The position numbers were made by a program, and so were the translations under genes. From assembly GCA_016934935.1 (NCBI GenBank), contig JAFGRW010000050.1, positions 811 through 64,810 on the forward strand: DNA of 64,000 nucleotides, in the 5' to 3' direction. The notes under the pieces are model-generated. The model did not search any database. It saw only the letters and a program-made list of their open reading frames with translations, and was not told the DNA's origin. The stretch is from Spirochaetota bacterium. Its GTDB lineage: Bacteria > Spirochaetota > UBA4802 > JAFGJZ01. How positions within the stretch are numbered: position 1 is the first letter of the stretch; every line of letters begins with the position of its first letter. Positions 1,933 through 22,770 of the stretch are shown here, one piece after another.

Positions 1933-1933
1933 G

Positions 1934-2758: not shown

Positions 2759-2820
2759 AAAATTTATTTATGAATTAGTCTTTAAATAATACTATAAGAA
2801 AATGTTTTAAGGAGATATTT

Positions 2821-3159: not shown

Positions 3160-3256
3160 ATACTGCCGTGAATAACCTGAATTGCCTACCGTGGCTCAAT
3201 CCGCATGATAGAAAACATGCCGGTTGTTTTATTAAAGGTTTTTATAAAGAGTAGCG

Positions 3257-3460
3257 GTTTAAGAAGTTCCCCTGATAAAAAAAGCAGTCCGGTTTTGCCG
3301 GACTGTTATTATTATCTACACGACTTATCAAATGAGAGGCAACAAGAGAGAGGGCAGAATAGCTGGGCGGCTATTCTGCCCTCTCTGCATGTTTGGACGC
3401 GCAGTGCAGGGAACAGTAATGTCTATCGGGAGGGATATTACAGACTGTTCCCTTCAATTA
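3257..3460. repeat. Hairpin-rich conserved element of ~204 nt, copy 1 (candidate sRNA or recombination site)
   Basis: 8 mismatches and 1 indel versus 34028-34230, and only 1 mismatch in the last 120 nt. Hairpins at 3285-3305, at 3347-3386 (16-bp perfect stem) and at 3408-3453. Confidence 0.6.
3277..3315. terminator. Bidirectional rho-independent terminator hairpin
   Basis: A7-CAGTCCGG-ttttg-CCGGACTG-TTATTATTAT, which gives a T7 tract on the minus strand. It lies downstream of the NifX-like gene (+) and of the long minus-strand operon. Confidence 0.7.
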
Positions 3461-3596
3461 GGTAGAGGCTTTAAGAACTTTATCCAGAGGCTGGACTTTG
3501 TGTGACTCAGGTTGAAGATATTTTATCATTTATTATAAATTAAGGATTAAACAGGTCAGAAGTGAAATCTTCGCAGCTGAGAACTCTGTCCGTAAT

Positions 3597-6500
3597 TTAA
3601 AGATTTTCATAAGTCACAGTATGGTTGATCTTTAATCCAAATATCCGGATGATAACTAATCCGCATATTATAATAATCCCGTAAATCTGGAGTATCGGTA
3701 TCAATGCCGAATGTATATTTCCGGTTGCAAGCAGCGGATAGAGAACCGGAAGAACAGAAACAAGTGAAATAATAGCGGATATAAACAGTAGCCGTGAGTA
3801 GTGAATAAAGTGAACATGCTTTAGAGCCATCTGTGAAAATCCAAGAGAGCGCATCAGTATAATTCGCCTGCTATCATCGTTATTTCCGGAACGGATAAGA
3901 AGCGCAAGCCCGGCAAGTCCCAGCAAGAGAGCCAGAGTCGAAAGTGTCTGAAAAATTCGCAGATAGGTGTTTTGCAGATGCATAAACTCTCTGAGTGTTT
4001 CGGTACTTGGGCGCACATGGGCTCCCCAATCGTTAAAGAGTCTTTGCAGAAGCCGCCTCTCTTCGGCTGATCCTCCGGTACCTGCAAGAAATATACCCGC
4101 GCCGGATGGGCTGTTAAAATTGGAGTAAAGCAGCTTGTGATCCATATATATCCGTCCCTGAAGACAGGTGTCATTTGCCAGTGCTGTTAATACTACGCGC
4201 CGTTTTTTTCCGTCTTTACCCCGGTATATTAACGTGTTGTTCAGATTTTTTTTAAGCCCCCACTGAAGTACAGAGGCGTCTATTGCGGCCGGAATTGCTC
4301 CGTCGTCACGCAGGTTGGCAAGCGTCTTCCATTTAAGTTTTTTTCCGTCGCCGTCACTCAATGTAAAGATATCTTCAGCATCCATAAGTTTGGTGTCAAC
4401 TCCAAGGATGCCGGGTGTATCCAGGGCGTTTAAGTTCAGACAGTTAGCGCTCTCTTCACCAAAGACTGTAAAGGGAATCATTTTCTCTTCGCGATCAGGG
4501 ATTCTGTCGGCAGGAACAGGTATATTTGTGTTAATTATAAAGTGTTTGCCTCCGGTTGGAGAACTGCTCTGTTCTGGATCAAAGGTTATCACCAGTCTGT
4601 TAGCTGAAACAGCAGTAACAATAAAAAAAGATATTGTCAGTACAACTATTACAGCACGGTCGCGCGGTTCACGACAAAGAAAAGAGAGTGCCGCCGCTGT
4701 AGCAAGTGAGAGCAGAAGGAGAAGACCGGAAATAAAAAAAAGTGTACTTTGCAGGGATTGGTAGGTGAGTGCTGTAAAAAAGAGAATTGCCGCTGCAACA
4801 AAAAGTAATATGGATAATAAAAAGAGTATCCGGGTATTACGTTTAGAGACGGTGGGAACGGGCAGATTGATATCCCTCATGCTGAAGTTTATCAGCCGTT
4901 TTTTTATGACAATGGCCGAAAGCAGCAGCACCGGAACGCTTCCCGCTATAAAGGAGGCCGGAACGATCCATGGCGCTATAAAAAGATAGAGGGCATCCGT
5001 GTTGACTGCTCCGTACCAGATGCTTCTCAGTAATGAAAGCAGAATGCGCACAAGGAAGATCCCGAAAAGGCTCCCGGTAATGCTTGAAATTAATACCGGT
5101 AAAAGTATCTCCCGCGTGTAAAGTTTTCGCAGCTTTGTAACGCTGTATCCTGTTGTACGCAGCAGTCCGGCTTCACCTTTTCGCGCGTTAATAAACTGAA
5201 TGGCAAGAACAGCGTGAATAAAAAGCAGAGCTGCTATCAGAAAAAAACTCATAGAGAGAAAGAGCATGGCAAAGTCAACCGATCCGCGCGAAGCCTTAAC
5301 AAGCTCCTCTCGTATTGGTGTTACTGCTATTCCGGCGTCGTCAATCGAAACATGATTTGAAAATTCATTTCTGACCATTGCAGAAGTTATTGTCTTTTCA
5401 AAACGTATAAGAACCGGATCCGGCGATATTGTTTTCGCTGCCCCGGTGTTAAGTATGATATGAGGCCGTTTGCCGTGACGTTCCCAATCCTCTTCGATAG
5501 CCGGTGTTATTTGTGAAAAATCAATAGGTAACGAGCTATCCCAATCACGACAGCTTGCACCCTCATCAAGACCGGGAAAGTCAGGTATGTCGCTGCTTCG
5601 TTTAAGAAAGAGTGCTTCGTTACCGATAGAATCGATAATAACAGGATACTCTCCTATTGTCAGTTTCCCGTCGTCTTCGGAAAACTTGTAGTATTTCAGA
5701 ATTATGGTGTCACCGGGTTTGGCCCCTGTAGTTTGCGCGAGAAGCGGCGAAATTATATTCTGCTTATCCGGTGAAGAGACAAAGAAGAGATAAAATCTTG
5801 AGCCCGCTTTTGCCTCCGCGCTGTGCAGAAACGAAGCGTGAACGTGCTCAGAGTCAAGTGAAGATAGCGCCTTCTGTATGTATGATGGAATAAAATGGGC
5901 GTCGCTTGTTAACACAACGTGTTTGCTGTCATCTTCATGCAGTTTGAGCCCCGGATCTTCGAGTGACAGAATATCCGGCGGAAACTGGAACGATTCATTG
6001 TCTGATCGAATAAGGACTCTGTTAGCACGTCCGGGAATACGCGCGATTTGCCCAAGCTCATCCCTGTTTGCGAAAATTAATCGGGACGGTCGCTGTGTTA
6101 TCTCTGTTTGAAATGAGGCTATAGAGGATTCTTCCAGAATACGACTGACGGTAAACTCCCTGTCAGAATAGCCGTGAATACCACGGGCTGCAGGTTCTAC
6201 TATTTCACCAGTTGATATATGTGCAATTCTAAGCGTTAGCGGATCACCGGGCTTGACATCAAGATAGTCGGCTGCCATTTTGTTAAGCCATAGTTCACCC
6301 TCATCCGGGGAGTCACCGGGAGTTTTGTCGTCAGAAAAAAAAGAAAGAAAGTATGTGTCAATACCGGTTACCGAAAGTGGTGAGTCCGGGTTTTGAATAC
6401 CCGATGCCGATATCAGCGGCAGTTGCAGATATGCTGCTGCCTCTATATTGCTATCGCTGATGATACGCTTTTCAAGATCATTTATAAACGGTGTTTGCGA

Positions 6501-6686
6501 AATTATTAGATGAGTTGCCTTGCCGATTTTATTGAGGTTGTATGCCTTAATACTTTCGCGGACTGAGTGTCCCACCAGTAAATTGGCACAGATCAATGCC
6601 GAAGCAAGAAACCCGGCAATGCCAAGAAGAGTCAGGCGGTTTCTGTAATAGCGTCTTGAGGCTCTTGTAAAACGGGCTCTATCCAT
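3597..6686 (-). CDS. Large ABC permease with two FtsX-type TM modules and two large extracytoplasmic domains (MacB/LolCE-like)
   Basis: N-terminal TM, a soluble region of about 430 aa, a TM cluster, a second soluble region, then a C-terminal TM cluster. ATG 6686 overlaps the TGA of the upstream ATPase gene (TGATG); TTG 6689 is an alternative start. Confidence 0.75.
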   Translation of the reverse strand: MDRARFTRASRRYYRNRLTLLGIAGFLASALICANLLVGHSVRESIKAYNLNKIGKATHLIISQTPFINDLEKRIISDSNIEAAAYLQLPLISASGIQNPDSPLSVTGIDTYFLSFFSDDKTPGDSPDEGELWLNKMAADYLDVKPGDPLTLRIAHISTGEIVEPAARGIHGYSDREFTVSRILEESSIASFQTEITQRPSRLIFANRDELGQIARIPGRANRVLIRSDNESFQFPPDILSLEDPGLKLHEDDSKHVVLTSDAHFIPSYIQKALSSLDSEHVHASFLHSAEAKAGSRFYLFFVSSPDKQNIISPLLAQTTGAKPGDTIILKYYKFSEDDGKLTIGEYPVIIDSIGNEALFLKRSSDIPDFPGLDEGASCRDWDSSLPIDFSQITPAIEEDWERHGKRPHIILNTGAAKTISPDPVLIRFEKTITSAMVRNEFSNHVSIDDAGIAVTPIREELVKASRGSVDFAMLFLSMSFFLIAALLFIHAVLAIQFINARKGEAGLLRTTGYSVTKLRKLYTREILLPVLISSITGSLFGIFLVRILLSLLRSIWYGAVNTDALYLFIAPWIVPASFIAGSVPVLLLSAIVIKKRLINFSMRDINLPVPTVSKRNTRILFLLSILLFVAAAILFFTALTYQSLQSTLFFISGLLLLLSLATAAALSFLCREPRDRAVIVVLTISFFIVTAVSANRLVITFDPEQSSSPTGGKHFIINTNIPVPADRIPDREEKMIPFTVFGEESANCLNLNALDTPGILGVDTKLMDAEDIFTLSDGDGKKLKWKTLANLRDDGAIPAAIDASVLQWGLKKNLNNTLIYRGKDGKKRRVVLTALANDTCLQGRIYMDHKLLYSNFNSPSGAGIFLAGTGGSAEERRLLQRLFNDWGAHVRPSTETLREFMHLQNTYLRIFQTLSTLALLLGLAGLALLIRSGNNDDSRRIILMRSLGFSQMALKHVHFIHYSRLLFISAIISLVSVLPVLYPLLATGNIHSALIPILQIYGIIIICGLVIIRIFGLKINHTVTYENL

Positions 6687-8671
6687 CAACGAATCCTCCC
6701 GTCTAAAAGCTCTATGGTTCGATCCATAAGTGATGCCATCTCCTTCTCATGTGTCACCATCAAGAGAGAGCTTTTATGCTCCTTTGCCAGTTTTTTAAGC
6801 AGGTTAAGCACGGTTATACTGTTGTCGCTGTCAAGCGATCCCGTCGGTTCATCCGCGAGTATCAGTTTAGGCCGATTTATCAATGCCCGGGCGACGGCTG
6901 TGCGTTGCCGTTCTCCTGTTGAAAGCTCTCCGGGATAATGGGTAATCCTCGCGCTCAGGCCGACCTCGTCGATTAGTTCGTGCGCGCGTTCTTTTTGTTG
7001 CGCGTCTGGTTTTTTCATATCGGGAGCCATGGCCGGTAGCAGAACGTTTTCCATAAGGGTCAGTTGCGGTAGCAGAAGATGCTCCTGAAAAACAATGCCA
7101 AGCTCTGTTGCTCTGAAACGGTCACACTGTTCTGCTGTCCACGCGGCAGTATCGTCACGCAGAAAAGTTACTGATCCGTTGTCGGGGCGGTCGAGCAGGG
7201 CGCAGAGCATAAGCAGTGTTGTCTTGCCGCTGCCTGAGGGTCCGCAAAGGGCGACACATTCACCCTCGTCAATTTTGAATGAGACGCCTTTCAGCACATC
7301 AGCAAGTACAAGACCGTCCCTGTTTTTAAATGAACGATGCAGATCATTTATTTCAAGAACTCTCCGTCTTTTATTATGCAGCGGTTTTACAAGCGTAAGA
7401 AGTTTTTCTGCTGCTGTGTTATGCGAAAAATTTGTCCCGGCTCGTTTTCGAGCCGCCTCTGAAAGTTTTTGCGCGTAGGCCGGGTCACCAAGAAGTGTGT
7501 CGAGTGCGTCAGTCAGGGCAGAGACATTCTGCGGTGTATAGAGCAGTCCTGATCTGTCTGTATCCCCTATAATTTCACTAAAGGCTCCTATGTCCGGTTC
7601 CACAACGGGTATACCGCGTGCCATCGCTTCAAGAAGATAATATCCGAATGCTGTTGGCTCTTTTTGTGGAACGCATAGCAGTGTCATGCCCTCAAAAAAG
7701 GAGTCGCGCTGACTGCTGGTAATGTTTGGATACAGTTCGACCTCGCCGGTCGTTATGTGCGGAGCAAGAATCCTGCGAAGCCGGAGCACGTATGGGCGGT
7801 CATCACCGTTATAGCCTCCGCCGATACGCAGTCGAAGATTCTTGTACCTTTTTTTAAGTGTAAGCCACGCTTCAACAAGTTTATGCGGCGCGCCATCTTC
7901 GCATATACGTGAAAGATATCCTATTACCGGAGCATCACTTGTAACAGTTGCTGTTACCGGGCACGCCGGAACATCAATTGCCGGATATAAAACCGGAAGC
8001 TTCTCCTGTGCAAGCGGGAGCCTGTTCAGCATATAATCCCGATAATAGTTACTGACCGGTAAAAAAAGATCTACCATACGGGACTGGCTTTTTAATAGTT
8101 CCCAGGCCGTGTGTCTCCAGGGGGCGCGCATGCTGTCAAGCCAGGTATGCTCATCCTGTAAAAAGCAGACAAGCCGCGCGGCCGGATAGCGTTTTACCAG
8201 ATCAGAGCCAAGCCCGATAAGAAGCGCGTTTGAAAGAAGAATGGTGTCGGGAGAGTAGTTGTCCAGAAGGCCATGGAAATGCTCCTTCTCTTCCTGCTGC
8301 ATCAGCAGAGAGCCGCTCATCATCTGCAGCGTCATCTTTTCGAGTCCCCGCGATCGTGTACTTGCTGAAAGATGCGCGGCAATTTTAAGAAATGGGTGTG
8401 TATCAAGAATGCGGCTGATAAATGGCGCGTGTCTTCGCAGCCAGGGAATTTTGCTGCGAAGGCTCATCGAGACTGCTCCGCAAACAAGCAGCTCTTCACC
8501 TTCCAGGCGTTCGCCGTCATTAAAAAGAGGCATGTAGAGAGGAACGATCATTACCTGTGCTCCGGCATTTCGAAGCGCGCGGACGAGTGGTCTGTCGCGC
8601 AGGCAGTTTTCACAATAAAAGGCGCCGCCTGAACCGGGTATCAAATATACTATTTTTTGGTCTCTATTCAT
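6686..8671 (-). CDS. Fusion protein: N-terminal GT4/GT1-type glycosyltransferase plus C-terminal ABC ATP-binding domain (LolD/MacB-like)
   Basis: GT-B motif EPTAFGYYLLEAMARGIPVV. This is followed by Walker A GPSGSGKTTLL, signature LSTGERQR, Walker B LILADEPTGSLD and H-loop VTHE, all in a single 661-codon ORF. Confidence 0.8.
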   Translation of the reverse strand: MNRDQKIVYLIPGSGGAFYCENCLRDRPLVRALRNAGAQVMIVPLYMPLFNDGERLEGEELLVCGAVSMSLRSKIPWLRRHAPFISRILDTHPFLKIAAHLSASTRSRGLEKMTLQMMSGSLLMQQEEKEHFHGLLDNYSPDTILLSNALLIGLGSDLVKRYPAARLVCFLQDEHTWLDSMRAPWRHTAWELLKSQSRMVDLFLPVSNYYRDYMLNRLPLAQEKLPVLYPAIDVPACPVTATVTSDAPVIGYLSRICEDGAPHKLVEAWLTLKKRYKNLRLRIGGGYNGDDRPYVLRLRRILAPHITTGEVELYPNITSSQRDSFFEGMTLLCVPQKEPTAFGYYLLEAMARGIPVVEPDIGAFSEIIGDTDRSGLLYTPQNVSALTDALDTLLGDPAYAQKLSEAARKRAGTNFSHNTAAEKLLTLVKPLHNKRRRVLEINDLHRSFKNRDGLVLADVLKGVSFKIDEGECVALCGPSGSGKTTLLMLCALLDRPDNGSVTFLRDDTAAWTAEQCDRFRATELGIVFQEHLLLPQLTLMENVLLPAMAPDMKKPDAQQKERAHELIDEVGLSARITHYPGELSTGERQRTAVARALINRPKLILADEPTGSLDSDNSITVLNLLKKLAKEHKSSLLMVTHEKEMASLMDRTIELLDGRIR

Positions 8672-8695
8672 ATTTTCCTCTGTTTATGCCCTTAG

Positions 8696-9793
8696 CTATT
8701 TTTTAACAACTTCCAGAATATGAACACGACCAGCAGCGTTGCCAACGGCAATAAGGTTTTGGTGTATCGCGGCACCGAGCGAGGGCAGTGCACCAAGGTT
8801 GTACGATGCTATTTCGCGGCCGGTCTCTCGATCAATCAGCATAATTGCGCCCGAAGCGTTCGCGCTTATGATACCTTCGTCGATATTCACTGTTTCAAAG
8901 TCAATCGCGCTGCCGCTTTCAAAACGCCAATTCAATTTGCCGTCTTTTGCGTCAAAGGAGTAGATGCGTCCGCGTTGATCGGCGCTGATTACAGCTCCAT
9001 TTGTGTAAAGAACCGGCGCGCGGACCGGCGCGCTCATATCGGGTATAATGCTCCATCGGAAACCTTCACCGGGAACATATGCGCTTATATGTCCCTCATA
9101 GCCGGCGAAGTAGATTGTTCCTGTTTCGTCTGTTGCAGGAGTTGATGGAATATATGAACGCACAGTTGCCGAATCGATAAGCGTGCCGTCTGCACGTTTT
9201 AGTATGTAGAGCGTCGCGTCACACGATCCAAAGACTACTGTTTCGCCTATGATTACCGCTCGTCCGTTTATAAAGCTCTTTGGTGAAAAGGTCCAGATTG
9301 TTTCAAGACTGTGCCGGTCTATTTTAAAAAATTTGTTTTCGTAATTACCGGCATAGATTGCCTGCTTGCCGGGATCCATTGTAAGGCCGCCCTGTATCTG
9401 TCCAAGACCAGCTCTCTCTTTTAAAAGTGAGCCGTCCATTGCGTTTATCGCGAGAAGTACACCTTCGAGTGAGGCAATGTACAGTGTCTCGCCAACAAGC
9501 AGCATTGATGCCTCGAAGGATAGCTCGCGCGAGTATTGCCACACTTTTTTTGCGTCGGGGAAAGTGAACGCTGTAATCTCTCCCTCTCCGGTGGCGACAA
9601 AAAGATATGTTAAGTCGCCTGCTTTTTTTATAAGCGGCGGAGCTGTTACCGATGAAGAGAGTTTTACACTGTTGCGCAGTCGAATCACCGTTTTTTTTTC
9701 GCTCTCATTTTGACGGCTGCATGCAGTTGTAATTAATATCATCAGTAAAAAAACAATTATGCATGGATGACAATTTATTTGTTTTCTACTCAT
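8696..9793 (-). CDS. PQQ-like/BamB-like beta-propeller repeat lipoprotein (P1)
   Basis: Signal peptide with lipobox-like ITTAC. Repeated blade pattern (G.LY....DG.L.A.....G...W). 8-nt overlap with the upstream gene. Confidence 0.7.
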   Translation of the reverse strand: MSRKQINCHPCIIVFLLMILITTACSRQNESEKKTVIRLRNSVKLSSSVTAPPLIKKAGDLTYLFVATGEGEITAFTFPDAKKVWQYSRELSFEASMLLVGETLYIASLEGVLLAINAMDGSLLKERAGLGQIQGGLTMDPGKQAIYAGNYENKFFKIDRHSLETIWTFSPKSFINGRAVIIGETVVFGSCDATLYILKRADGTLIDSATVRSYIPSTPATDETGTIYFAGYEGHISAYVPGEGFRWSIIPDMSAPVRAPVLYTNGAVISADQRGRIYSFDAKDGKLNWRFESGSAIDFETVNIDEGIISANASGAIMLIDRETGREIASYNLGALPSLGAAIHQNLIAVGNAAGRVHILEVVKK

Positions 9794-15227: not shown

Positions 15228-16525
15228 TATATCACCTTTTCGCTCAATTTTTTGGATTTTTCGCGTGGGCACGTATTCATGCAGCGGGTACAGAGGAAGC
15301 ACTCCTTCTGTCTGATCTGTGCCGATTCGCGATATCGCCGGAAATCAGTCGAGGCAAGAGAGATGCCAAGAAACAGTCCGGCCACGACACCGCTTATGGT
15401 CATTATGGTAATAAAACGGGTTTTGATCTTTCCGGCTGTGATGGCCAACTCTTCGGGTTTGCCACCCTGTTCAAGAAAAGATTCGACCTCTGTGCTTTCT
15501 GTTTTCTGCTGAATAATAAGCGAGTTAAGACGGACATCGGTGTGTACGAAACTTAAATATCTTCCCGCAAGGTTGCCCGCAAACGCAAGCACTACCATTA
15601 ATGATGCTGTAATCAGAAGAAGCGGAAGAATTTTCGCGCGAGCCTCTTCGGTGTCGATTGGGTTATCGGGAGGGCTGATTGCGTCAGCCGGGCAGAGCTC
15701 GTTACAGAGTTTGCAGTCGCTGCAAGTATGGCCGGTTATTGTCGCTCGCTTGCCGGAGAAGAGAGCCGCCAGAGAGAGCATAACACCATAGGGGCAGATG
15801 ATGCGGCAGTAGGGTCTGTAGAGAATAAGTGAAGTTGCAAGAAAAACGGCGGTCAGAATCCCCATCCCCGTAACACCGCCTGCATGGAAGACTGGAAGAA
15901 AGGGATCCGAAAGACAGATAATATTTGGTGCGCCCGTCCAGGCCGCTGCGGCTGCTGCCCCAATGTAAAATATCGGAACAATAGTAAGGGTCTGCCATAC
16001 GGTTCGTGGAATAGGTAGCCGCTTGATAAAAAGCAGCTCCTGAATCGCGCCAAGCGGGCATGCACCTCCGCAATAGAGCCGCCCCAAAAACAGGGCGGCA
16101 GCGAGCGGTAGCAGAAAGAACAGAAGCACAGGGAGGTCGATGCGTGCCTCGGGATGCAAAAAGAGGGCAAGGACGTTTTGAACACTACCGACAGCGCAAG
16201 GGCATCCCTGACGTACTATTCCGAAATAGAGAAGTCCGGCCAGAGTGACACCCAGAAAAAAAAGGCGTGAACGAAAACGGTAAATAGCAGCCGCTGTTAA
16301 AGTCATTATAATTATCAGAACAATTATATCTCCATAGGCACTCAGAAAACTTCCTGTGTTGCCGAGAACCATCGGGGGATATTCATAACCCGACGCAAAG
16401 TCGGGTTGTGGAAATCTGAATCCGGATTCTGATAAAATTAATGTTAATGGGCTTTTATACACACAATTTCTCCAACATTGCTTCTTAGATACAGGTAACC
16501 GTTCCAGTAGCTTGGCGCAACCCAT
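15227..16525 (-). CDS. NapH/MauN/YccM-family membrane polyferredoxin
   Basis: Multi-TM protein with GRLYCGGACPLG and RPYCRIICPYG (R.xC...CP motifs). C-terminal CSDCKLCNELCP and CTRCMNTCP. Strong SD gaggagg before ATG 16525. Overlaps the P3 3' end by 82 nt; an alternative ATG is at 16372. Confidence 0.75.
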   Translation of the reverse strand: MGCAKLLERLPVSKKQCWRNCVYKSPLTLILSESGFRFPQPDFASGYEYPPMVLGNTGSFLSAYGDIIVLIIIMTLTAAAIYRFRSRLFFLGVTLAGLLYFGIVRQGCPCAVGSVQNVLALFLHPEARIDLPVLLFFLLPLAAALFLGRLYCGGACPLGAIQELLFIKRLPIPRTVWQTLTIVPIFYIGAAAAAAWTGAPNIICLSDPFLPVFHAGGVTGMGILTAVFLATSLILYRPYCRIICPYGVMLSLAALFSGKRATITGHTCSDCKLCNELCPADAISPPDNPIDTEEARAKILPLLLITASLMVVLAFAGNLAGRYLSFVHTDVRLNSLIIQQKTESTEVESFLEQGGKPEELAITAGKIKTRFITIMTISGVVAGLFLGISLASTDFRRYRESAQIRQKECFLCTRCMNTCPREKSKKLSEKVI

Positions 16526-17727
16526 GATCCTCCTCTGCCGCTTTCTGACAGTACATCAAGACCCTCACTCGCGGAAAATCCGGATGTCGTGGGTTCTACC
16601 GTGTGCAGATAGCCGTGTTCCGTAAGGTAAACCAGGGTGTTATTAACTTTAATCAGGGATCCATACATTCCGGTTTTTTCCTGATAGTATATCTCTCCTG
16701 TAAGTGGATCAAGACTGGTAAAGGTACATCGGGCACGCGCGTTTGTGTCGCCGTTTATGCCGAACAGAGCGCCTTCATGCTCAATAAGGCTGCTGAAGTG
16801 AGTACTGATACCCTCCTTGATCCACACCTCTTTAAAAGATCCGGTAGAGAAGTCAAGCAGCGCGTTTCCTTCGTCGCGGTATGATGATGAGATCAGCACC
16901 TTATTGTTATCAATAATTACTGGATCAGCAGCGTTTATATGATACATGTTTATCCACTCGTAACGTGCTTTCTCCTGGCCGTCTGCAGCGTCAATCAACA
17001 GAAGGTGTTGTCCACCAAAAAGCATAATATTGCGCTTACCTTCGTAATCAAACAGAACCGGAGTCGCGTAACCATTTGCCAGTGTTGTATCACCCTTCCA
17101 GATAGTGCTGCCGTCGGTTTCGTTTAGCGCAACGCCGCCGCCAATATTCAGATAAATAACTCCATTTTCGATAACTGGTGACCCGGAAATTCCCCATTCA
17201 TTAATTAGAGTGTTCTCCTCCCGGGCGACATTTCTTTTCCATCGCACACTGCCGTCTTTAACAGAGAGTGAAATAACATCGCCATCACCACCAACAGCTA
17301 TTACGTGTTCACCCGAAATAACCGGCATCGATCGCGGTCCCGCGTATTGATAATCGGTTTTTTGCTCAAACTCAAATTTCCATATAACTTCACCATCGGA
17401 TGAATCCAGGCAATATACCTCTTCAATGATTTCGCTTCCTGTTGCTATTTTGCGTCCCATTGTATAGACGCGGTTATCCGAGACTGCCAGTGCCGAGTAA
17501 CCCCAGCCGACAAAGGCGCGCCAGACTACCGGGTTCTCCTTTTTGATAAAATCAGCATTAAAAACTTCATCTGTTATTGTTCCATTGCTGTTTGGGCCGC
17601 GCCACTGGATCCAGCCTGTGTCCTGAGGGACATTATTGACTTTTTTTGAACACGAAGTTGAAAATAGAATTATTAATACAATATGCAAGACCGGTTTGAT
17701 ACTTTTAAATAAATATTGAAAAACCAT
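16444..17727 (-). CDS. PQQ-like beta-propeller lipoprotein (P3; same subfamily as P5 and P6)
   Basis: Signal peptide ending STSC. Shared motifs GW..WRGP, YAGPR.MPVI, VIYLNIGGG, INAADP, STHFSSLIEH and LYLRSN.GE..C. Confidence 0.75.
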   Translation of the reverse strand: MVFQYLFKSIKPVLHIVLIILFSTSCSKKVNNVPQDTGWIQWRGPNSNGTITDEVFNADFIKKENPVVWRAFVGWGYSALAVSDNRVYTMGRKIATGSEIIEEVYCLDSSDGEVIWKFEFEQKTDYQYAGPRSMPVISGEHVIAVGGDGDVISLSVKDGSVRWKRNVAREENTLINEWGISGSPVIENGVIYLNIGGGVALNETDGSTIWKGDTTLANGYATPVLFDYEGKRNIMLFGGQHLLLIDAADGQEKARYEWINMYHINAADPVIIDNNKVLISSSYRDEGNALLDFSTGSFKEVWIKEGISTHFSSLIEHEGALFGINGDTNARARCTFTSLDPLTGEIYYQEKTGMYGSLIKVNNTLVYLTEHGYLHTVEPTTSGFSASEGLDVLSESGRGGSWVAPSYWNGYLYLRSNVGEIVCIKAH

Positions 17728-17729
17728 AA

Positions 17730-18824
17730 TTATATGATCTCCTCTTTAGAATAAGATTTTGACTGTAATTTTAATTTTGAATATCCGTTAAAGTCCATAA
17801 GATGTGAAAAACCAGCTGAAACCATCATCTTTCTGCAATCGCAAGTTGTAATTTCATCATTATCACGCCATAAAGCGGTAGTAAAACCTTCTTTGTCTTT
17901 TACTGGATGATTCTCCGGATCTCCATGAATTGGTTCCCCAGTCTCGGGAAAAAATGCATTTGCACCGCTAAATAATCCAGCAACACTAGGTGCGTTTACT
18001 GCTATGCTTTTTATGTTTGGTTTGTTTTGGGTTGCCAATGCAACAACTGCAATAATCTGGTTCAGTCTGGATAAACTGACCTGACCGTATTTATATAGCG
18101 GTGAGCCTTTAACGGGAAACCGCTGCATAACTCCGTGCTGAACACATGGATAATCAATTCCTATCCATATTTGCTCAGCCAGCTCTTCAGGTGTATGCTC
18201 CGGTCCAACCGGTTCACACATATTAAACCATGACAATCCAGCCTCCAGGATGTACTCAATAGTTTTTTTTCTTGAATCCGGACTGATGCACGAGTCTGTG
18301 CCTTCTCTCAAGCGGGAAACGTGATAAGCTCCTGTAACGCCGGCATCTTTAAGTTCTTTAAGTTGTGAAAGTGAGAGGTCTCCTACATTAGCCAGTATTT
18401 CAAATTGATTTGGAATTAAATTACGTAAATCTGCACATAAGTCTCTAAACCAATCAAGACCAAACCGATGCATGGTCATTAAGAAAACTCCTTGGGCACC
18501 TCCAAGGACAAATTGTATGCAACGATCTATAATTTCTTGTTTGTCAAGAGCAGACGGTTTAATTAAAGCATTAGAATTCGCAAAAAAACAAAACGCGCAA
18601 TCACCATCACATGGCGCCATATCCACACCAATTTGCCCCAGAAGAAGCGCGTGATTCGAAAATTTTTGACGACTGACAATGTTGGCTGTAGATGTTAATA
18701 TAGATGATTCTAATGAGTTTTCTGGCAACTTCAGTAGATTTATTGCTTCATCTTTTGTAATGGATTTACCGTTCTCGGCGTTCATCAGAATACTGATTAT
18801 TTTTTTGTCAGCTTTCACATTCAT
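17730..18824 (-). CDS. Radical SAM enzyme (BioB/HydE/PylB-like TIM-barrel type, no SPASM tail seen)
   Basis: CDGDCAFC is a CX3CX2C motif at about aa 80, with an upstream helical region typical of the BioB-like group. Confidence 0.65.
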   Translation of the reverse strand: MNVKADKKIISILMNAENGKSITKDEAINLLKLPENSLESSILTSTANIVSRQKFSNHALLLGQIGVDMAPCDGDCAFCFFANSNALIKPSALDKQEIIDRCIQFVLGGAQGVFLMTMHRFGLDWFRDLCADLRNLIPNQFEILANVGDLSLSQLKELKDAGVTGAYHVSRLREGTDSCISPDSRKKTIEYILEAGLSWFNMCEPVGPEHTPEELAEQIWIGIDYPCVQHGVMQRFPVKGSPLYKYGQVSLSRLNQIIAVVALATQNKPNIKSIAVNAPSVAGLFSGANAFFPETGEPIHGDPENHPVKDKEGFTTALWRDNDEITTCDCRKMMVSAGFSHLMDFNGYSKLKLQSKSYSKEEII

Positions 18825-18943
18825 TTCCTGTTATTTGCTAAGGTCAGCGTCTTAAATAAAACCTGGTATACCATAAATTGATGTATGGTTTTTTTCGGTA
18901 TCATAGTATAGCAAACTATTTTTATAAGAGTAAATAATCTGTT

Positions 18944-19489
18944 TTACCCTCCTTTTAGCAGATATGGTAAGCTTGCTTCAGTTGGTCTGATCGCATTTGC
19001 CGGGCACACTGCCGCGATAGCGCACTGGTTACAGTGAGAACAGTACTCCTGATCTATCTGAAGATAGAGCGATCCGTTCCCGAATGCCTCGCAATTTTTA
19101 GCGCACCGTCCACAGCCGATACATAATTCCCGGTTTATTCTGTACTCGAAATAAGGGTTCTCTATAAAATTGCGTTCAATAGCACCAGTCGGACAGATCT
19201 GTCTTTCGGGGGCTGTGTCAAGCATGGCGGTACCTTGCCGATAATATCCCGAACAGAGGTCGCAGTAGCCACAGATTGCGTAGGTATGTACACATCTTAC
19301 AGCTGAGTGAAACTTGACACAGGCATTTTCACAGAGACCGCAGTTGGTACATTTGTCAGGATCGATCTGCCATAACCGCCTCTTGAATGCAATTCGGTTA
19401 AACCATGGTCCCAGTATGAGTCCTGCAACGGTTCCACCAGTGGCCCATAAAAATAGCTTCTTTAACAGGTCGCGTCTGCTTAATGACAT
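18944..19489 (-). CDS. Tat-signal (RRDLLKK) NapG-like poly-[4Fe-4S] ferredoxin
   Basis: MSLSRRDLLKK plus a hydrophobic stretch. Motifs CTNCGLCENAC, CGYCDLC, CIGCGRCAKNC and CSHCNQCAIAAVCP. Confidence 0.75.
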   Translation of the reverse strand: MSLSRRDLLKKLFLWATGGTVAGLILGPWFNRIAFKRRLWQIDPDKCTNCGLCENACVKFHSAVRCVHTYAICGYCDLCSGYYRQGTAMLDTAPERQICPTGAIERNFIENPYFEYRINRELCIGCGRCAKNCEAFGNGSLYLQIDQEYCSHCNQCAIAAVCPANAIRPTEASLPYLLKGG

Positions 19490-19491
19490 GC

Positions 19492-19707
19492 TTATGACTC
19501 CTTGCCGGTAACTCTCTTATACGAGAGAGCTTCAGCTCTTGAGCACTTATTAACAGCTCCACATCCTCTGCATACACCACTGCGGCTGCAACCGGAGCTA
19601 GTATTGTCGGTGTCTATCTTGTCATGCAGCAGGTAACCTCCCATTAACATAAAAGCGGCACCAGCTACAAATCGGCATCCGGTTAGTAAAAATTCTTTAC
19701 GGTTCAT
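19492..19707 (-). CDS. 71-aa membrane-anchored Cys-rich protein resembling the RnfB N-terminal Fe-S domain
   Basis: One TM helix followed by C-x6-C-RG-C-GAVNK-C-SRAEAL (compare RnfB NCGGCGYAGCRAFAEAL, from memory). ATGA overlap with P4 and a 2-nt gap to the ferredoxin gene. Confidence 0.5.
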   Translation of the reverse strand: MNRKEFLLTGCRFVAGAAFMLMGGYLLHDKIDTDNTSSGCSRSGVCRGCGAVNKCSRAEALSYKRVTGKES

Positions 19708-21155
19708 GGTAAATCTCCATTCAAATCATAACAGCGTAAGCGTTTATCATCTCTCGCGATCAGGATACCGGTTTCGGTCAATGCCAGCGGTCCCCATGCG
19801 TCACGTCCATCCGGCAAAATAATTTGAGAATCCAGAAGCTCGTATCCTTCACGGTTAACTCTAAAGAGATAGAGAGTTCCGTCATCGTTAAGAAGCAAAA
19901 GTCTATCGCCTGATAACAGGTAAGGACCAAGACCAAAGCGCAGGTCTGATCCGCTGCTCCAGAGTATCGTGCCCGAACTATCGGCGGCGACCAGTTGTTC
20001 CCGTAGCGCGCCGGCATCCTTAGGTTGTATACCAATAATAAAAGAGCCGGCGTTTATCGGTGTCTGCTGTTCGCTTGCAAGCCCTTCGTGAGGAGCACGA
20101 TGAATCCCTTCGTCTACTATCCAGTTGCCGCTTTGTAAACTTACGTCAAAAAAAATGGTGCCGCTTCCGTATCCGGCACTCTGGATTATACGATTACCCA
20201 TAATTACAGGTGAGGGCGCTATGACATTCGCATTCCACTTATATGTCCACAAAAGCCGTCCCTTATCTCCCTGCTTCGCGGAAACTGATACAATACCTCC
20301 AACTGCCGCGTATATATATTGCGGCACACCATCAATCGTTGCCTTCATGATAGAGCTGTGTGAAAGTCCAAATTGTTCTGTATTCGGTGTCTCCCAGGCT
20401 ATCTCTCCACTGCTCTCCTCGATGCCGATCATAAGCGCTCTATCCGATGCCGGAGCAACGACAACAATGCCGTCATCAACAAGTGGGCACTGCGCCGTAT
20501 ACCATGATGGAATGGCGGAGTTCCACTCGGAGGCAAGGTCAACTCCCCATAACAGGGAGCCGTCGGTATTGTTAACGGCCATCACATGTCCTGACGGGCC
20601 GATTGATACAACACTGTTTTCTGTAACAGCAGGAACAGCCCGAGAGTAACCATGGTTTTTCTTTATTGGCTGCTGGTAGCCGTTCTGCCAAAGTTCTCTG
20701 CCGTCGGATAATCTGAAACAGCGAAGAAGATCACGCTGGGCATTTTCATCATAATCAATAATGTAAACTTTGCCGTCACGCACAGCTGCAGCCGCATAAC
20801 CTTCACCAAGCGTGATCTCCCATAAAAGCCGCACACCACTTAGAGAGTTAAAGTCGGCCGGCAGGGCACTGGCTGTTTGAATATTATTTCCTCTTTCACC
20901 GCGAAAGGAGGGCCAGCTGCCGTCAATATCATGTTTTGAATCGGGAACATCGAAAACGACATGCCAACTACCAAACCGCGCGACATTGGAGCTACCTTGT
21001 CGCCAGTCGGGTGGTTGGTTGTCCATATCGGATGTGTGAGCAGTCCAAGATATAGTTGGGTCGTATCGCAACATAAAAACAAGTATCGCGATAAAGGGAA
21101 GGCTGATAAGCAGAGCAGCCGGCTTGCTGTAAATGCTCAGTCCGTTCTGACGCAC
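19704..21155 (-). CDS. Membrane-anchored PQQ-like beta-propeller repeat protein (P4)
   Basis: N-terminal TM (AALLISLPFIAILVFML), then SWPSFRG and propeller repeats similar to P2. Confidence 0.7.
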   Translation of the reverse strand: MRQNGLSIYSKPAALLISLPFIAILVFMLRYDPTISWTAHTSDMDNQPPDWRQGSSNVARFGSWHVVFDVPDSKHDIDGSWPSFRGERGNNIQTASALPADFNSLSGVRLLWEITLGEGYAAAAVRDGKVYIIDYDENAQRDLLRCFRLSDGRELWQNGYQQPIKKNHGYSRAVPAVTENSVVSIGPSGHVMAVNNTDGSLLWGVDLASEWNSAIPSWYTAQCPLVDDGIVVVAPASDRALMIGIEESSGEIAWETPNTEQFGLSHSSIMKATIDGVPQYIYAAVGGIVSVSAKQGDKGRLLWTYKWNANVIAPSPVIMGNRIIQSAGYGSGTIFFDVSLQSGNWIVDEGIHRAPHEGLASEQQTPINAGSFIIGIQPKDAGALREQLVAADSSGTILWSSGSDLRFGLGPYLLSGDRLLLLNDDGTLYLFRVNREGYELLDSQIILPDGRDAWGPLALTETGILIARDDKRLRCYDLNGDLP

Positions 21156-22342
21156 GTTACCTCCCCAGTATTGCTTCTCAGGTAAAGACGGTTGTTCCAG
21201 AATGTAGGAGTGCTCCAGGCTATGCCTCTGCCTTTAAATATCTCCATTGTTTTCCCAGCACTGTATCCACTTCGCGATGGGTTTATCGGAATTAGGATGC
21301 CATCTTCTCCAAAAAAAATGATGGTGTCATTAATCTTAATTAGCGAACCGTATTGAGAAGTTTTTTCTTTCCAGATAACCTTTCCTGTTCGCGGATCCAT
21401 ACAGACAAAATTATTACGGGAGCGTTGTCCTGTGTTTCCTTCAATTCCGTATACAAGACCTTTATGCTCAATTAAGCTGCTGAAATGTGAACCAAGATCT
21501 TTGGACTCCCAAATTTTTTTAAATGATCCGGTCGAATAGTCTAAAAGTGTCGATCCACGACCATAACCGGATGAGATAAGCACCTTGTTGCCTGCAAGAA
21601 GAAGTGGGTCGGCTGCGTTAACGTTATGTGATGTTTTCCAGCTATATTCAGCCAGCTGTCGACCGTTTACCGCGTCAAGCATAACAAGAGCCGTGGAATT
21701 AAACATCATAATTGAACGTTTTCCTTTAAACGAAAAGAGAACCGGAGACGCGTAACCCGGTTCTGCGTCACTATTTTTCCAGCGAGTTTTACCGGTTTCA
21801 GCATCAAGAGCGATTCCGCCTCCGATATTCAGATATATTACATCGTCTTCGATGACTGCGGATGAAGCAATCCCGTATTGCCCTGCCGAAAGCTTCTCTT
21901 TCTTGCGCAGGTCGCGTTTCCAGACAGGTCTGCCGTTGTCAAGAGTGAGGCAGTGTATATCTCCATCAGAACCAATCATATAAAGCCTGTTGTCGTATAT
22001 AACCGGCATTGCCCGTGGGCCGGCATATTGATATTTTTTTCCTGCTTCAAAGTCATGGGTCCAGATAACACGTCCGTTAGAGGCATCCAGCGCGTAAATT
22101 GTTGTCAACTGCTTACCTCCACTGGATTTTAATCCCGCGGTATATACGCGATCTGATGTCGCGGCTATGGCGGAATAGCCATTTCCGACAGAAGCTTTCC
22201 AGACAGTTTGTCCGCTCTTTTTTGTAAACTCCGGATCAAATCCGGTAGTGCTTATTGAACCGTTGCGCAATGGTCCGCGCCAGATGGTCCATCCCGACGC
22301 GTGAGGGGAAGCCTCGCCGATCAAATATGTGTCATCATCCAT
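21137..22342 (-). CDS. PQQ-like beta-propeller protein (P5), separated from its signal peptide
   Basis: Same subfamily motifs as P3 and P6, but the ORF begins MDDDTYLIGEASPHASGWTIWRGP with no signal peptide. The signal peptide sits in the short upstream ORF. Confidence 0.7.
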   Translation of the reverse strand: MDDDTYLIGEASPHASGWTIWRGPLRNGSISTTGFDPEFTKKSGQTVWKASVGNGYSAIAATSDRVYTAGLKSSGGKQLTTIYALDASNGRVIWTHDFEAGKKYQYAGPRAMPVIYDNRLYMIGSDGDIHCLTLDNGRPVWKRDLRKKEKLSAGQYGIASSAVIEDDVIYLNIGGGIALDAETGKTRWKNSDAEPGYASPVLFSFKGKRSIMMFNSTALVMLDAVNGRQLAEYSWKTSHNVNAADPLLLAGNKVLISSGYGRGSTLLDYSTGSFKKIWESKDLGSHFSSLIEHKGLVYGIEGNTGQRSRNNFVCMDPRTGKVIWKEKTSQYGSLIKINDTIIFFGEDGILIPINPSRSGYSAGKTMEIFKGRGIAWSTPTFWNNRLYLRSNTGEVTCVRTD

Positions 22343-22376
22343 AAGCGGTCCATCCCGACGCGTGAGGGGAAGCCTC
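22286..22376. repeat. Two exact 30-nt direct repeats (22286-22315 and 22347-22376) with a 61-nt period
   Basis: ggtccatcccgacgcgtgaggggaagcctc occurs twice. Both copies are read as EASPHASGWT in their respective ORFs. Confidence 0.9.
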
Positions 22377-22490
22377 TGCTCTTCGTATCATTATGCCGTT
22401 ATTATCTATCAGATCTGTTTCATAATGCATCAGACCAAATAAAATGGCTGTGAACGTCCATATCAGTAACAGGGTTTTGCGTGTAATCAT
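22335..22490 (-). CDS. Detached signal-anchor fragment belonging to P5
   Basis: MITRKTLLLIWTFTAILFGL...EASPHASGWTAYG-stop. SD ggaga lies 9 nt before ATG 22490. It shares the 30-nt repeat with the P5 start. Confidence 0.4.
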   Translation of the reverse strand: MITRKTLLLIWTFTAILFGLMHYETDLIDNNGIMIRRAEASPHASGWTAYG

Positions 22491-22770
22491 AACTTTTGTC
22501 TCCATGGATAAAGGTTTATAAGTTACGGTTCGTTGTACATGAATCACTAATAAGAAGTGACTCTATGTGTAAATATTTACCATGAACAATATAGTATCAC
22601 CTGTACTGATAGACAATAAATATCATAAAATGATACAACGCGCGACCTATCTTAGAAGTTCGGTCGTATTTTTTTTTTGCGGTTAAATAATTACTTGCGC
22701 CACTATTTTGCATGAATAGTTTGTTAAGATAATGATGTGTGGATCAGTGTGAAAATCATATCAAATTAAT

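Follow-up and report, generated by a model that had tools for sequence, protein, structure and literature searches.

A conserved locus of beta-propellers, a putative NADH-to-periplasm Fe–S conduit, and a type VII ABC transporter in mostly anaerobic bacteria

The gene neighbourhood and its closest described relatives

Propeller enzymes accompanied by partners of the NapGH type are known from the nos and mau gene clusters: NosR and NosGH serve NosZ, MauMN is associated with methylamine dehydrogenase (MADH), and a propeller structure is shared by NosZ and the MADH heavy chain. Likewise, the Hmc, Tmc, and Qrc complexes of sulfate reducers constitute multi-subunit iron–sulfur (Fe–S) wires between the cytoplasm and the periplasm, including an Fe–S subunit exported by the twin-arginine translocation (Tat) pathway. 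In a 64,000-nucleotide stretch of DNA from an uncultured Spirochaetota metagenome-assembled genome (MAG), hereafter the window (assembly GCA_016934935.1, contig JAFGRW010000050.1, positions 811 to 64,810), a run of minus-strand genes encodes proteins related to these systems together with a transporter that has the type VII architecture of ATP-binding cassette (ABC) proteins. The described relative of the latter is YbbP, a lipid-extracting type VII transporter that, as YbbAP, pulls hydrophobic molecules out for the periplasmic partner enzyme TesA (PMC12646458). The minus-strand run is one transcription-unit-like block and forms the larger part of a three-module envelope system, in which a redox module, an extraction module, and a terpenoid module are linked. 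This conserved and uncharacterised system occurs in hundreds of mostly anaerobic bacterial species. No described kind accommodates it as a whole, even though its parts all belong to known superfamilies.

A sequence-only reading of the window had presented the genes between 22547 and 3597 as a co-directional operon that combines five propellers, an NADH flavoprotein, a NapH/NapG-like conduit, a radical SAM enzyme, and a type VII ABC exporter, a combination for which no characterised system was known. Indeed, all 14 open reading frames (ORFs) of this gap-poor interval lie on the minus strand, and each of the domain calls was confirmed by profile searches against Pfam and NCBIfam. The combination is still without a characterised counterpart: the neighbourhood is conserved, the propellers remain below all family cut-offs, and no published description of the gene cluster was found in the literature searched, where only the work on YbbAP–TesA is relevant (PMC12646458). 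The boundaries, however, had been drawn too narrowly, and the system extends to approximately 33.4 kb (hereafter the island; Table 1).

Synteny was counted in 39 loci anchored on the NapH-like gene, each with full 10-kb flanks. The propeller P4 is found in 38 of them, the propeller P2 and the NuoEF-like flavoprotein in 37 each, the Tat ferredoxin in 36, the Fe–S subunit in 35, the propeller P5 in 34, and the family 4 glycosyltransferase (GT4)/ABC genes in 31, always on the strand of the NapH-like gene, while the permease gene is found wherever the flank is long enough. The canonical order comprises one to three P1-class propellers, P2, an NHL-repeat propeller, a small Cys protein, the Tat ferredoxin, the NapH-like protein, P4, NuoEF, the Fe–S subunit, P5, GT4, the ABC ATPase, and the double-FtsX permease, and it recurs in an Acidobacteriota MAG, in JGI metagenomes, and in a 4.57-Mb genome. 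With this order repeated in dozens of genomes that are unrelated, the arrangement can hardly be a product of chance. Thus, the co-occurrence on which the earlier claim depended is borne out across phyla, with propeller, NapH-like, NuoEF-like, and GT4/ABC genes sharing a neighbourhood in 31–38 of the 39 loci.

The distribution of the system is equally broad. A scan for the NapH-like protein in a collection with one genome per species yielded at least 595 matches confirmed by tblastn; in addition, 131 close database clusters and 682 representative clusters (50% identity) at E<=1e-30 were retrieved. Carriers belong to Bacteroidota, Planctomycetota, Verrucomicrobiota, Acidobacteriota, and Spirochaetota. 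They include cultured bacteria (Draconibacterium orientale, D. sediminis, Marinifilum fragile, M. flexuosum, Labilibaculum, Ancylomarina, Carboxylicivirga, Saccharicrinis, and Plebeiibacterium), a large number of MAGs of Prevotella, Bacteroidaceae, Alistipes, and Parabacteroides from rumen and gut, and members of Phycisphaerae, Planctomycetaceae, Verrucomicrobiota, Acidobacteriota, Aminicenantia, and Spirochaetota.

In Pfam and NCBIfam, every protein of the minus-strand run scores below the curated cut-offs of the named equivalog families and, therefore, the genes are members of known superfamilies and of no characterised family. The same holds for the propellers in particular, whose placement inside a characterised enzyme family had been named as fatal to the claim of novelty: none of them reaches the cut-off of any such family in either collection. 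We consider it probable that the locus represents one conserved functional system containing an Fe–S conduit from NADH to the periplasm.

Modules of the system

The centre of the redox module is a membrane polyferredoxin of the NapH/NosR family, which contains two CX3CP motifs, a GCxC motif, and two CxxCxxCxxxCP clusters. In 36 sequences, the positions C101-x3-C105-P106, C189-x3-C193-P194, C217..C227-P228, and C358..C368-P369 show little or no variation. In common with NapGH/NosGH, NosR, and MauMN, a membrane protein with two CX3CP and two CxxCxxCxxxCP motifs is paired with a four-cluster ferredoxin carrying a twin-arginine (RR) signal, and propellers are encoded alongside, as are NosZ and the MADH heavy chain in their clusters. 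However, the scores of the NapH-like protein are far from those of the NapH/MauN family (TIGR02163, 36.7 vs 213 bits; NF007013, 38.7 vs 234 bits), six hydrophobic segments are present instead of the four of NapH, and a structure comparison with its model gave no match at E<=0.001. Moreover, the electron source would be a dedicated NADH flavoprotein and not the quinol pool used by NapGH. The locus also differs from NapGH/NosGH/MauMN in the absence of a Nap, Nos, or Mau enzyme, in a propeller, P4, that can be fused to the membrane protein, and in an extra Tat-signal mini-protein with four Cys residues. Compared with the Nos cluster, it lacks a NosZ with the His ligands of CuZ, a cupredoxin, and NosD, and its transporter is of the FtsX type. 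Planctomycetota loci show odd gene sizes, namely a P4 of 1019 aa in a Planctomycetaceae MAG (L096 3649-6708) and a 602-aa ORF over the NapH-like region in a Phycisphaerae MAG (L088 9326-11134), which may be a ferredoxin::NapH fusion.

Two Tat-signal proteins accompany the NapH-like protein. In the ferredoxin, R5, R6, and 16–17 Cys residues are conserved at >=95% among 75 orthologues, although its score against the NapG hidden Markov model (HMM) is only 21.4 vs 269. The second, a 71-aa protein, had been described as an RnfB-N-like mini-protein, a label that does not hold: an equivalent small ORF precedes the Tat ferredoxin in most loci, and its conserved R-[RK]-x-F N-terminus and four Cys residues identify it as a second Tat-signal Cys protein, probably a periplasm-facing carrier with four Cys residues that may hold an Fe–S cluster. 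The observation that the NapGH-type module comes with no periplasmic molybdo- or haem enzyme was correct. No CxxCH haem motif occurs in the proteins of the island, no molybdoenzyme is encoded in it, and no NapAB, NosZ, or MADH domain was found in the island or in related loci. Without a haem c motif or a molybdoenzyme in the island, the propellers are the only exported candidate partners of the conduit. The likeness to Hmc, Tmc, and Qrc is one of concept; cytochrome c or b subunits are absent, the membrane subunit belongs to another family, and the cytoplasmic partner is predicted to use NADH.

This cytoplasmic partner is a 785-aa fused flavoprotein with the Pfam domains 2Fe-2S_thioredx, Complex1_51K, NADH_4Fe-4S, and two Fer4. 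The gathering cut-offs are clearly passed (Complex1_51K, 145 vs 31 bits; NADH_4Fe-4S, 95 vs 23.5 bits; NuoE-type 2Fe-2S, 146 vs 24.8 bits), and the NuoF motifs for flavin mononucleotide (FMN), NADH, and the N3 cluster, read from the translation, are intact (GLRGRGGGGYPT, CNGDEGDPGAF, and ESCGRCVICR). The protein would, therefore, be the NADH entry point. The second subunit had been called a 2Fe–2S/FAD protein, of which the 2Fe–2S part is confirmed. The FAD domain, however, is vestigial, with a short Rossmann-type GxGxxG stretch left at residues 194–229, and orthologues of approximately 217–535 aa differ in size exactly in this flavin-domain region. Accordingly read from its domains, the 468-aa protein is best seen as a putative NuoG/GltD-N-type Fe–S wire.

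The pair shares with NuoEFG, HydABC, and the Sporomusa-type Nfn (StnABC) a NuoE-like 2Fe–2S domain, a NuoF-like FMN/NADH/N3 core, and a HydB-like C-terminal 2x[4Fe–4S] region, as well as a second subunit with a NuoG/HydA-N 2Fe–2S and a GltD-type 2x[4Fe–4S] domain. In contrast to these enzymes, a hydrogenase, a formate dehydrogenase, a quinone module, and a functional GltD domain for FAD/NADPH are all absent, and the module is located downstream of the NapH-like gene, between genes for membrane-anchored and lipoprotein propellers. In the comparison with NuoF of complex I, TIGR01959 gives 401 vs an equivalog cut-off of 558.65, and no nuoA-N genes exist in the window. In Draconibacterium orientale, a gene for a thioredoxin-like protein (Thioredoxin_3) lies between NuoEF and the Fe–S subunit (L021 15385-15840), a position occupied by ORFs of other sizes (approximately 125–393 aa) in several other loci.

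The five propellers described in the operon do contain the PQQ_2 domain in Pfam, but the count for the island rises to six with another one on the plus strand. Four classes can be distinguished: P1, P3, and P6 form one paralogue group (44–54% identity; P1–P3 46%, P1–P6 44%, P3–P6 54%), which reaches copy numbers of 0 to 4 in other loci, while P2, P4, and P5 are each distinct. All propellers remain far below PQQ (pyrroloquinoline quinone)-dependent alcohol dehydrogenases, with which they share the 8-bladed fold (<=42 bits vs 480, TIGR03075), and below BamB (<=87.5 bits vs 285.2, TIGR03300/NF008351).

P2 is the most conserved among them, with 56 invariant columns in an alignment of 60 sequences at 40–61% identity and relatives in > 1240 database clusters. 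Its AlphaFold2 model (predicted local distance difference test 91.7) consists of a transmembrane helix at residues 3–30 and an 8-bladed propeller. Hence, P2 is a probable catalytic or ligand-binding component. In structure comparisons, tetrathionate hydrolase is the best match (12–13% identity, TM-score 0.59), and BamB reaches a TM-score of ~0.7 at 16–20% identity; a transfer of function was rejected, as only generic 8-bladed folds were retrieved (tetrathionate hydrolase, BamB, and PQQ dehydrogenases, 12–20% identity). P4 is tied to the NapH-like protein by natural fusions of the two, such as P0248 (1040 aa) and P0251 (1136 aa): approximately 10 of the best 150 NapH-like representatives have ~1000 aa, and their C-terminal 500–600 residues align with the membrane domain and the propeller of P4. 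P5, in turn, is a candidate periplasmic partner of the permease.

P1 had been counted as a lipoprotein-type propeller. As written, it has no signal peptide because its N-terminus is severed, and the severed piece shows no lipobox. Removal of 61 nt at the split restores a single 449-aa ORF, the length of the homologue in L014, and the 70-aa ORF is no independent gene because this deletion fuses it to P1. Real pseudogenisation, slippage, or an artefact of assembly could be behind the interruption of 61 nt within 22286-22376. Between P2 and the small Cys protein, most related loci (L021 7839-8813, L030 8176-9201, and L007 1557-2534) carry one more propeller, of ~320 aa and with NHL repeats; it gives weak matches to the scytonemin protein ScyF and to SGL, and it is absent from the window and its closest relatives (L012-L014).

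The extraction module combines GT4, the ABC ATPase, and the permease. GT4 and the ATPase are encoded by two adjacent genes (~428 and ~227 aa) in most other loci and, thus, their fusion in the window is lineage-specific. The best models for the ATPase are LolD, DevA, YbbA, and MacB, none of whose equivalog cut-offs is reached (LolD 218 vs 307.75, YbbA 170 vs 336, MacB 168 vs 966). The permease, whose orthologues measure 1023–1093 aa, has 10 hydrophobic segments and two large periplasmic loops (~40-470 and 698-911) in a transmembrane scan. An FtsX-type permease with a large periplasmic domain between TM1 and TM2 and an ATPase of the MacB/LolD clade, the features of type VII ABC transporters, are therefore both present. 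Like YbbAP–TesA, LolCDE, and MacAB, the module includes a LolD/MacB-like ATPase, and its single two-FtsX permease with 10 transmembrane segments and two periplasmic domains resembles YbbP. The gene of a periplasmic partner is also adjacent, which is P5 here and TesA in E. coli (PMC12646458). However, E. coli YbbP, the only sequence match in the PDB (9ge6), is reached at a marginal E of 0.0025. The permease also exceeds YbbP by ~230 residues, a propeller lipoprotein takes the place of a hydrolase as partner, and GT4 is adjacent or fused to the ATPase.

The terpenoid module is a plus-strand cassette that had remained outside the boundaries first drawn. The motif V-P-D339-x-D341-D342-T343 of its class II cyclase is invariant in nine orthologues, and the closest solved protein is squalene-hopene cyclase, but the scores are below the cut-offs of the hopene and triterpene families (TIGR01507, 81.4 vs 431; TIGR01787, 106 vs 323). 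No squalene synthase gene occurs in the island, which encodes a DUF116–prenyl diphosphate synthase instead. The synthase motif FHKASL[IV]HDD[IV][EQ]D is conserved, with small residues at positions -4 and -5 before DDxxD. In trans-prenyl synthases, the residues at these positions inform product length and, by these established chain-length rules, the product would be C20 or longer. Hopanoid and sesquarterpene pathways (HpnF, HpnH, HpnN; Bacillus SqhC) likewise use a DxDDT class II cyclase, a radical SAM enzyme, a glycosyltransferase, and a dedicated envelope transporter. They differ in the sequences of the enzymes (cyclase, 81 vs 431 for hopene cyclase; radical SAM enzyme, 46 vs 225 for HpnH) and in their resistance-nodulation-division (RND) transporter, which is of the type VII ABC kind here. 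We know of no hopanoid pathway with a redox conduit or propellers.

The cassette adjoins the operon in the window, L013, and L014. In L030 and many other rumen and gut Bacteroidales, including Prevotella, as well as in Carboxylicivirga, Saccharicrinis, and Plebeiibacterium, cassette and redox genes form a single co-directional operon with overlapping genes, in which the cassette lies upstream of P2. Conversely, the redox module is present in 20 of 53 cassette loci anchored on the cyclase that have enough downstream sequence, the cassette is directly followed by P5-GT4-ABC in L098, and four genomes carry cassette and redox block at distant positions. Two membrane-embedded AraC-family regulators bracket the cassette in the window, whereas a LytS-like histidine kinase and a LytTR regulator take the place of the AraC pair in other lineages (L021, L029, L030, and L165); these regulator types suggest control by a membrane signal.

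The BioB/PylB/HydE-like radical SAM gene of the operon is not part of the system. It occurs in none of the 39 full NapH-anchored loci and accompanies the system only in the window and L007. In a neighbourhood search anchored on this gene, 10 of 11 loci had no other system gene, and its family comprises 538 unnamed clusters at 60–67% identity in unrelated contexts. Together with its host-like G+C content (39.3%) and its position behind the only large gap of the operon, this identifies the gene as an insertion. Its score for BioB membership is far from the cut-off (TIGR00433, 29.9 bits vs 225), and no biotin context was found, the neighbours elsewhere being a PadR regulator with a pyruvate formate-lyase (PFL)-like enzyme, sulfatases, and others. 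In a Planctomycetota lineage (L258/L259 6001-9902), the family lies directly upstream of the PadR regulator and the PFL-like glycyl-radical enzyme, a neighbourhood that may be a lead to its own function.

Possible working of the system and competing explanations

The reading tentatively preferred here, which we hold as a substantial possibility somewhat short of an even chance, is that an NADH-to-periplasm Fe–S conduit serves propeller enzymes acting on a cyclised, glycosylated polyprenoid that is extracted by the YbbP-like type VII ABC transporter. In the redox module, the NuoE/NuoF-type flavoprotein would oxidise NADH, and the electrons would pass through its Fe–S clusters and the NuoG/GltD-N-like subunit to the cytoplasmic clusters of the NapH-family polyferredoxin. 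From there, they could reach the Tat-exported four-cluster ferredoxin and the Tat-signal 4-Cys mini-protein on the periplasmic side, and leave the conduit at membrane-anchored P4, coupled to the NapH-like protein, and at P2, the probable site of substrate binding or catalysis. In the terpenoid module, the prenyl synthase, the DxDDT cyclase with its half-toroid partner, and the radical SAM enzyme with its own ferredoxin would yield a cyclised polyprenoid. Finally, P5, GT4, the LolD/MacB-like ATPase, and the YbbP-like double-FtsX permease would pull the glycosylated lipid from the inner membrane. The predicted sequence of events is, thus, that the cassette makes the lipid, GT4 decorates it, the ABC machine extracts it and passes it to the propellers, and electrons drive a reductive step in the periplasm at P2/P4. 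The hand-over to the propellers is proposed by analogy with YbbAP, whose hydrophobic substrates are passed on to TesA (PMC12646458). What the sequences show is the domain make-up, the retained motifs, the Tat signals, the synteny, the fusions, and the linkage of the three modules; which way the electrons run, which proteins touch, what the lipid is, and that it accepts the electrons are inferred.

Two hypotheses had been attached to the sequence-only reading. The first, a conduit from cytoplasmic NAD(P)H to the periplasm in the service of the propellers, gains support from the intact NuoF motifs, the conserved RR signals, and the NapH-like::P4 fusions. The second, an export machine for lipids or glycoconjugates, gains support from the linked terpenoid cassette, the GT4 gene beside the ABC ATPase elsewhere, and the relationship to YbbP. 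Its additional claim that the redox module feeds the chemistry of the BioB-like radical SAM enzyme fails because this enzyme is absent from all 39 full loci and normally found in unrelated contexts.

Several points weigh against the integrated proposal. Conserved Cys or His residues arranged as expected for a redox cofactor are absent from P2, P4, and P5, no propeller shows a pattern of cofactor ligands and, thus, the acceptance of electrons by a propeller is unexplained; the nearest folds of P2 are a cofactor-free tetrathionate hydrolase and the scaffold BamB, at 12–20% identity. The Fe–S clusters of NapH are thought to face the cytoplasm, which leaves the electron route across the membrane unexplained, and no solved structure exists for any NapH relative. 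The HydBC-like architecture could also point to bifurcation or reverse electron flow, each functional step of the proposal is read from sequence, and we know of no precedent for an NADH-driven periplasmic reduction of a lipid. Moreover, the cassette lies beside the redox module in only 6 of the 39 NapH-centred loci, and the cassette scan gave 269 confirmed matches vs at least 595 in the NapH-like scan, two scans that differ in sensitivity. With this low adjacency and the smaller number of cassette genomes, the redox and extraction modules may often work without the cassette.

In a second explanation, the conduit stands alone and serves redox balance or respiration. NADH electrons would be delivered to an acceptor in solution or in the envelope (oxygen or peroxide, a sulfur compound, or an organic oxidant). 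Its reduction would take place at P2, with participation of the NHL propeller in other genomes, and the genes for ABC, GT4, and terpenoid proteins would either assist assembly or be loosely associated. The redox genes are the most constant part of the neighbourhood, the cassette is missing from most NapH-centred loci, and the carriers appear for the most part to be fermenters or facultative anaerobes, to which an extra NADH sink would be of use; the window itself encodes AdhE and Rex. The best structural match of P2, tetrathionate hydrolase, is a cofactor-free 8-bladed enzyme of sulfur metabolism, but the match amounts to only 12–13% identity and a TM-score of 0.59, and P2 shows no pattern of cofactor ligands. 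Furthermore, P5-GT4-ABC follow the redox genes on the same strand in 31–34 of the 39 loci, as does the permease where the flank is long enough, and the cassette shares the operon in several lineages. On balance, a conduit on its own is rather unlikely, at about one chance among a handful.

A system for maturation and maintenance comparable to Nos, Mau, or QHNDH is less probable still, and we consider it unlikely. Here, the NapGH-like pair would build the periplasmic cofactor or the active state of a propeller enzyme or keep it reduced, and the ABC transporter would deliver a building block in the manner of NosDFY. The design is parallel, as a single cluster holds a pair of the NapH/NapG type, a beta-propeller, and an ABC transporter; NapH-like relatives carry the JGI label 'NosR/NirI family', and the thioredoxin-like gene of some loci (L021) recalls MauD. 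However, no signature of a Cu, haem, or quinone cofactor was found, and P2 has two invariant His residues only, whereas CuZ requires seven. A cupredoxin domain, a small cofactor-bearing subunit, and a NosD/NosY-type transporter are all missing, the transporter being of the FtsX type, and the NADH module and the terpenoid cassette would be left unexplained.

The exporter hypothesis exactly as first formulated, with propellers as passive scaffolds and a redox module that supplies cytoplasmic radical SAM chemistry, is improbable. Radical SAM enzymes do require a reductant, two of them are encoded in the island (the BioB-like one and that of the cassette), and BamB-like propellers are often scaffolds. 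Nevertheless, in addition to the absence of the BioB-like enzyme from the 39 loci, the cassette enzyme has its own adjacent ferredoxin-like gene, a cytoplasmic supply of reductant needs neither a NapH-like protein nor two Tat-signal Fe–S proteins nor a NapH::P4 fusion, and the conservation of P2 is much higher than a passive scaffold would call for. Lastly, a packing of unrelated units by chance, for which the 119-nt gap with its weak promoter-like site and the inserted radical SAM gene could be cited, is scarcely credible, being contradicted by synteny, since the order recurs in at least five phyla and dozens of loci and two gene fusions link the parts.

Four readings were rejected. A Nos-like cluster was discarded for want of Cu ligands and of NosDFY, and a QHNDH-like peptide-quinone system because neither small ORF is a cofactor peptide, one being a gene fragment and the other the Tat-signal 4-Cys protein. 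Cytochromes are missing for an extracellular electron-transfer conduit, as are partner subunits for complex I or a hydrogenase.

Layout of the window and wider meaning

Spacing and conserved synteny suggest that the minus-strand run is an operon. The junctions first quoted are exact (ATGA at 19704-19707 and 13458-13461, TAATG at 15225-15229, and TGATG at 6684-6688). The statement that only one gap exists needs amendment: the 119 nt at 18825-18943 are exact, but the correction of starts reveals a second sizeable gap, of 71 nt, that separates P3 from the NapH-like gene. After correction, the NapH-like gene starts at 16372, P4 at 15227, and NuoEF at 13461; the latter two are fixed by gene overlaps and the first by the 381-aa product held in the database (P0001). 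Database products that match the NapH-like and radical SAM ORFs of the window are P0001, P0121, and P0389. Scans of the window for promoter and terminator consensus sequences gave no enrichment over shuffled sequences, and a single convincing terminator-like site, the hairpin at 3283-3307, was retrieved. This hairpin lies within an 86-aa ORF on the plus strand (3205-3465) that has no family match and is probably not a gene.

The G+C content amounts to 47.1% in the operon, 42.9% in the terpenoid cassette, and 37.1% in the rest of the window (33379-64000). This pattern and the lower value of the accessory radical SAM gene agree with a system that was acquired laterally and into which a host-like gene was inserted later. 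The ProRS gene of the window is 99% identical to a contig of 'Spirochaetota bacterium AMR_MDS_3064'. A plus-strand block at 210-3159, convergent with the operon, encodes two CbiA/MinD-type ATPases with inserted 4Fe–4S domains, an Mrp/NBP35 (NUBPL-type) ATPase, and a NifX/NifB-C-like Nitro_FeMo-Co protein. These genes may have a bearing on Fe–S supply, and no comparable four-gene block was seen adjoining the system in other loci. Elsewhere in the window, AdhE beside Rex, a typical fermentative redox-sensing unit, and a second, ordinary single-FtsX permease are encoded (39693-42964 and 58922-60253, both on the minus strand).

Table 1. Features of the island and its flanks in the window (positions in window coordinates).
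Feature	Position	Strand	Remarks
Terminator-like hairpin, bidirectional	3283-3307		Between permease gene and convergent NifX-like gene; 11-bp stem, 6 GC pairs, T-runs on both strands
Double-FtsX permease, 1030 aa	3597-6689	-	FtsX matched in two stretches, 40.9 vs 25.5; YbbP-like type VII ABC architecture
GT4 glycosyltransferase::LolD/MacB-type ABC ATPase, 661 aa	6686-8671	-	Glycos_transf_1 + ABC_tran
P5, lipoprotein propeller	8696-9793	-	PF13360 + PF13570; always precedes GT4/ABC
Fe–S subunit (putative wire), 468 aa	9786-11192	-	Fer2_4 (NuoG/HydA-N-type 2Fe–2S) + Fer4_20 (GltD/DPD-type 2x[4Fe–4S]) + vestigial Rossmann + C-terminal Cys clusters
NuoEF-like fused flavoprotein, 785 aa	11167-13461	-	NuoE-like + 2Fe–2S + NuoF-like (FMN/NADH) + 2x[4Fe–4S]; HydC+HydB-like architecture
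P4, propeller with multi-spanning N-terminal membrane domain	13458-15227	-	Partner of NapH-like protein
NapH/NosR-family membrane polyferredoxin, 381 aa	15227-16372	-	Fer4_5 E 4e-14; six hydrophobic segments
P3, lipoprotein-type PQQ_2 propeller, P1/P3/P6 class	16444-17727	-	PF13360 E 1.3e-31; N-terminus ..LFSTSC
BioB/PylB/HydE-like radical SAM enzyme	17730-18824	-	CxxxCxxC motif = CDGDCAFC; accessory insertion
Intergenic gap, 119 nt	18825-18943	-	Upstream of accessory radical SAM gene; weak promoter-like site 18934-18905, 9/12 matches
Tat-signal polyferredoxin, NapG-like design	18944-19489	-	Fer4 families; four CxxCxxCxxxC-type cluster motifs
71-aa protein, Tat-like N-terminus M-N-R-K-E-F	19492-19707	-	One hydrophobic segment; C-x7-C-x2-C-x6-C
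P2, 8-bladed propeller with N-terminal membrane anchor	19704-21155	-	Most conserved propeller
P1, PQQ_2 8-bladed-type propeller, P1/P3/P6 class	21137-22342	-	PF13360 E 2.5e-44
Exact direct repeat, 30 nt	22286-22376	-	Copies 22286-22315 + 22347-22376 around 31-nt spacer with in-frame TGA; splits P1
Severed 5' part of P1, 70 aa	22335-22547	-	Signal/anchor segment 'LLLIWTFTAILFGLMHY'; C-terminal peptide EASPHASGWT recurs at P1 start
AraC-family regulator, membrane-embedded, 387 aa	22855-24018	+	Six hydrophobic segments; divergent from operon
Terpenoid cassette	24073-30473	+	Outside original finding; divergent from operon
Fer4 protein	24073-24903	+	Terpenoid cassette
Cassette radical SAM enzyme	24900-26084	+	Terpenoid cassette
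DUF116 + long-chain-type prenyl diphosphate synthase fusion	25969-27678	+	Terpenoid cassette
Half alpha/alpha-toroid protein	27647-28561	+	Terpenoid cassette
Class II cyclase, 606 aa, DxDDT	28653-30473	+	Terpenoid cassette
P6, sixth PQQ_2 lipoprotein propeller, P1/P3 class	30583-31848	+	Closes terpenoid cassette; 54% identical to P3
Second AraC-family regulator, 387 aa	32215-33378	-	69% identical to first; the two bracket the cassette

The scale of the finding, with 15–20 genes and at least 595 confirmed matches in the one-genome-per-species collection, extends from rumen and gut Bacteroidales to cultured marine Marinilabiliales, and these cultured carriers make the system open to genetics, lipidomics, and biochemistry. 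For transmembrane electron transfer by the NapH/NosR family, the locus offers a self-contained version, in which NADH is the presumed donor and natural NapH::propeller fusions exist. A more far-reaching view, possible but doubtful, is that it constitutes a new kind of envelope machine, namely a quinone- and haem-independent conduit powering periplasmic propeller enzymes that tailor a new class of cyclised, glycosylated polyprenoid lipid, moved by a propeller-partnered type VII ABC transporter. If so, the propeller would be a new kind of periplasmic partner for these transporters, and anaerobic Bacteroidota, bacteria of the Planctomycetes–Verrucomicrobia–Chlamydiae (PVC) group, Acidobacteriota, and Spirochaetota would possess a hopanoid-like envelope-lipid pathway that needs reducing power outside the cytoplasm. 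To our knowledge, no cyclic terpenoid lipid has been reported in the carrier groups; such a lipid would be new to them and would have a bearing on lipid biomarkers and on the envelope biology of gut anaerobes.

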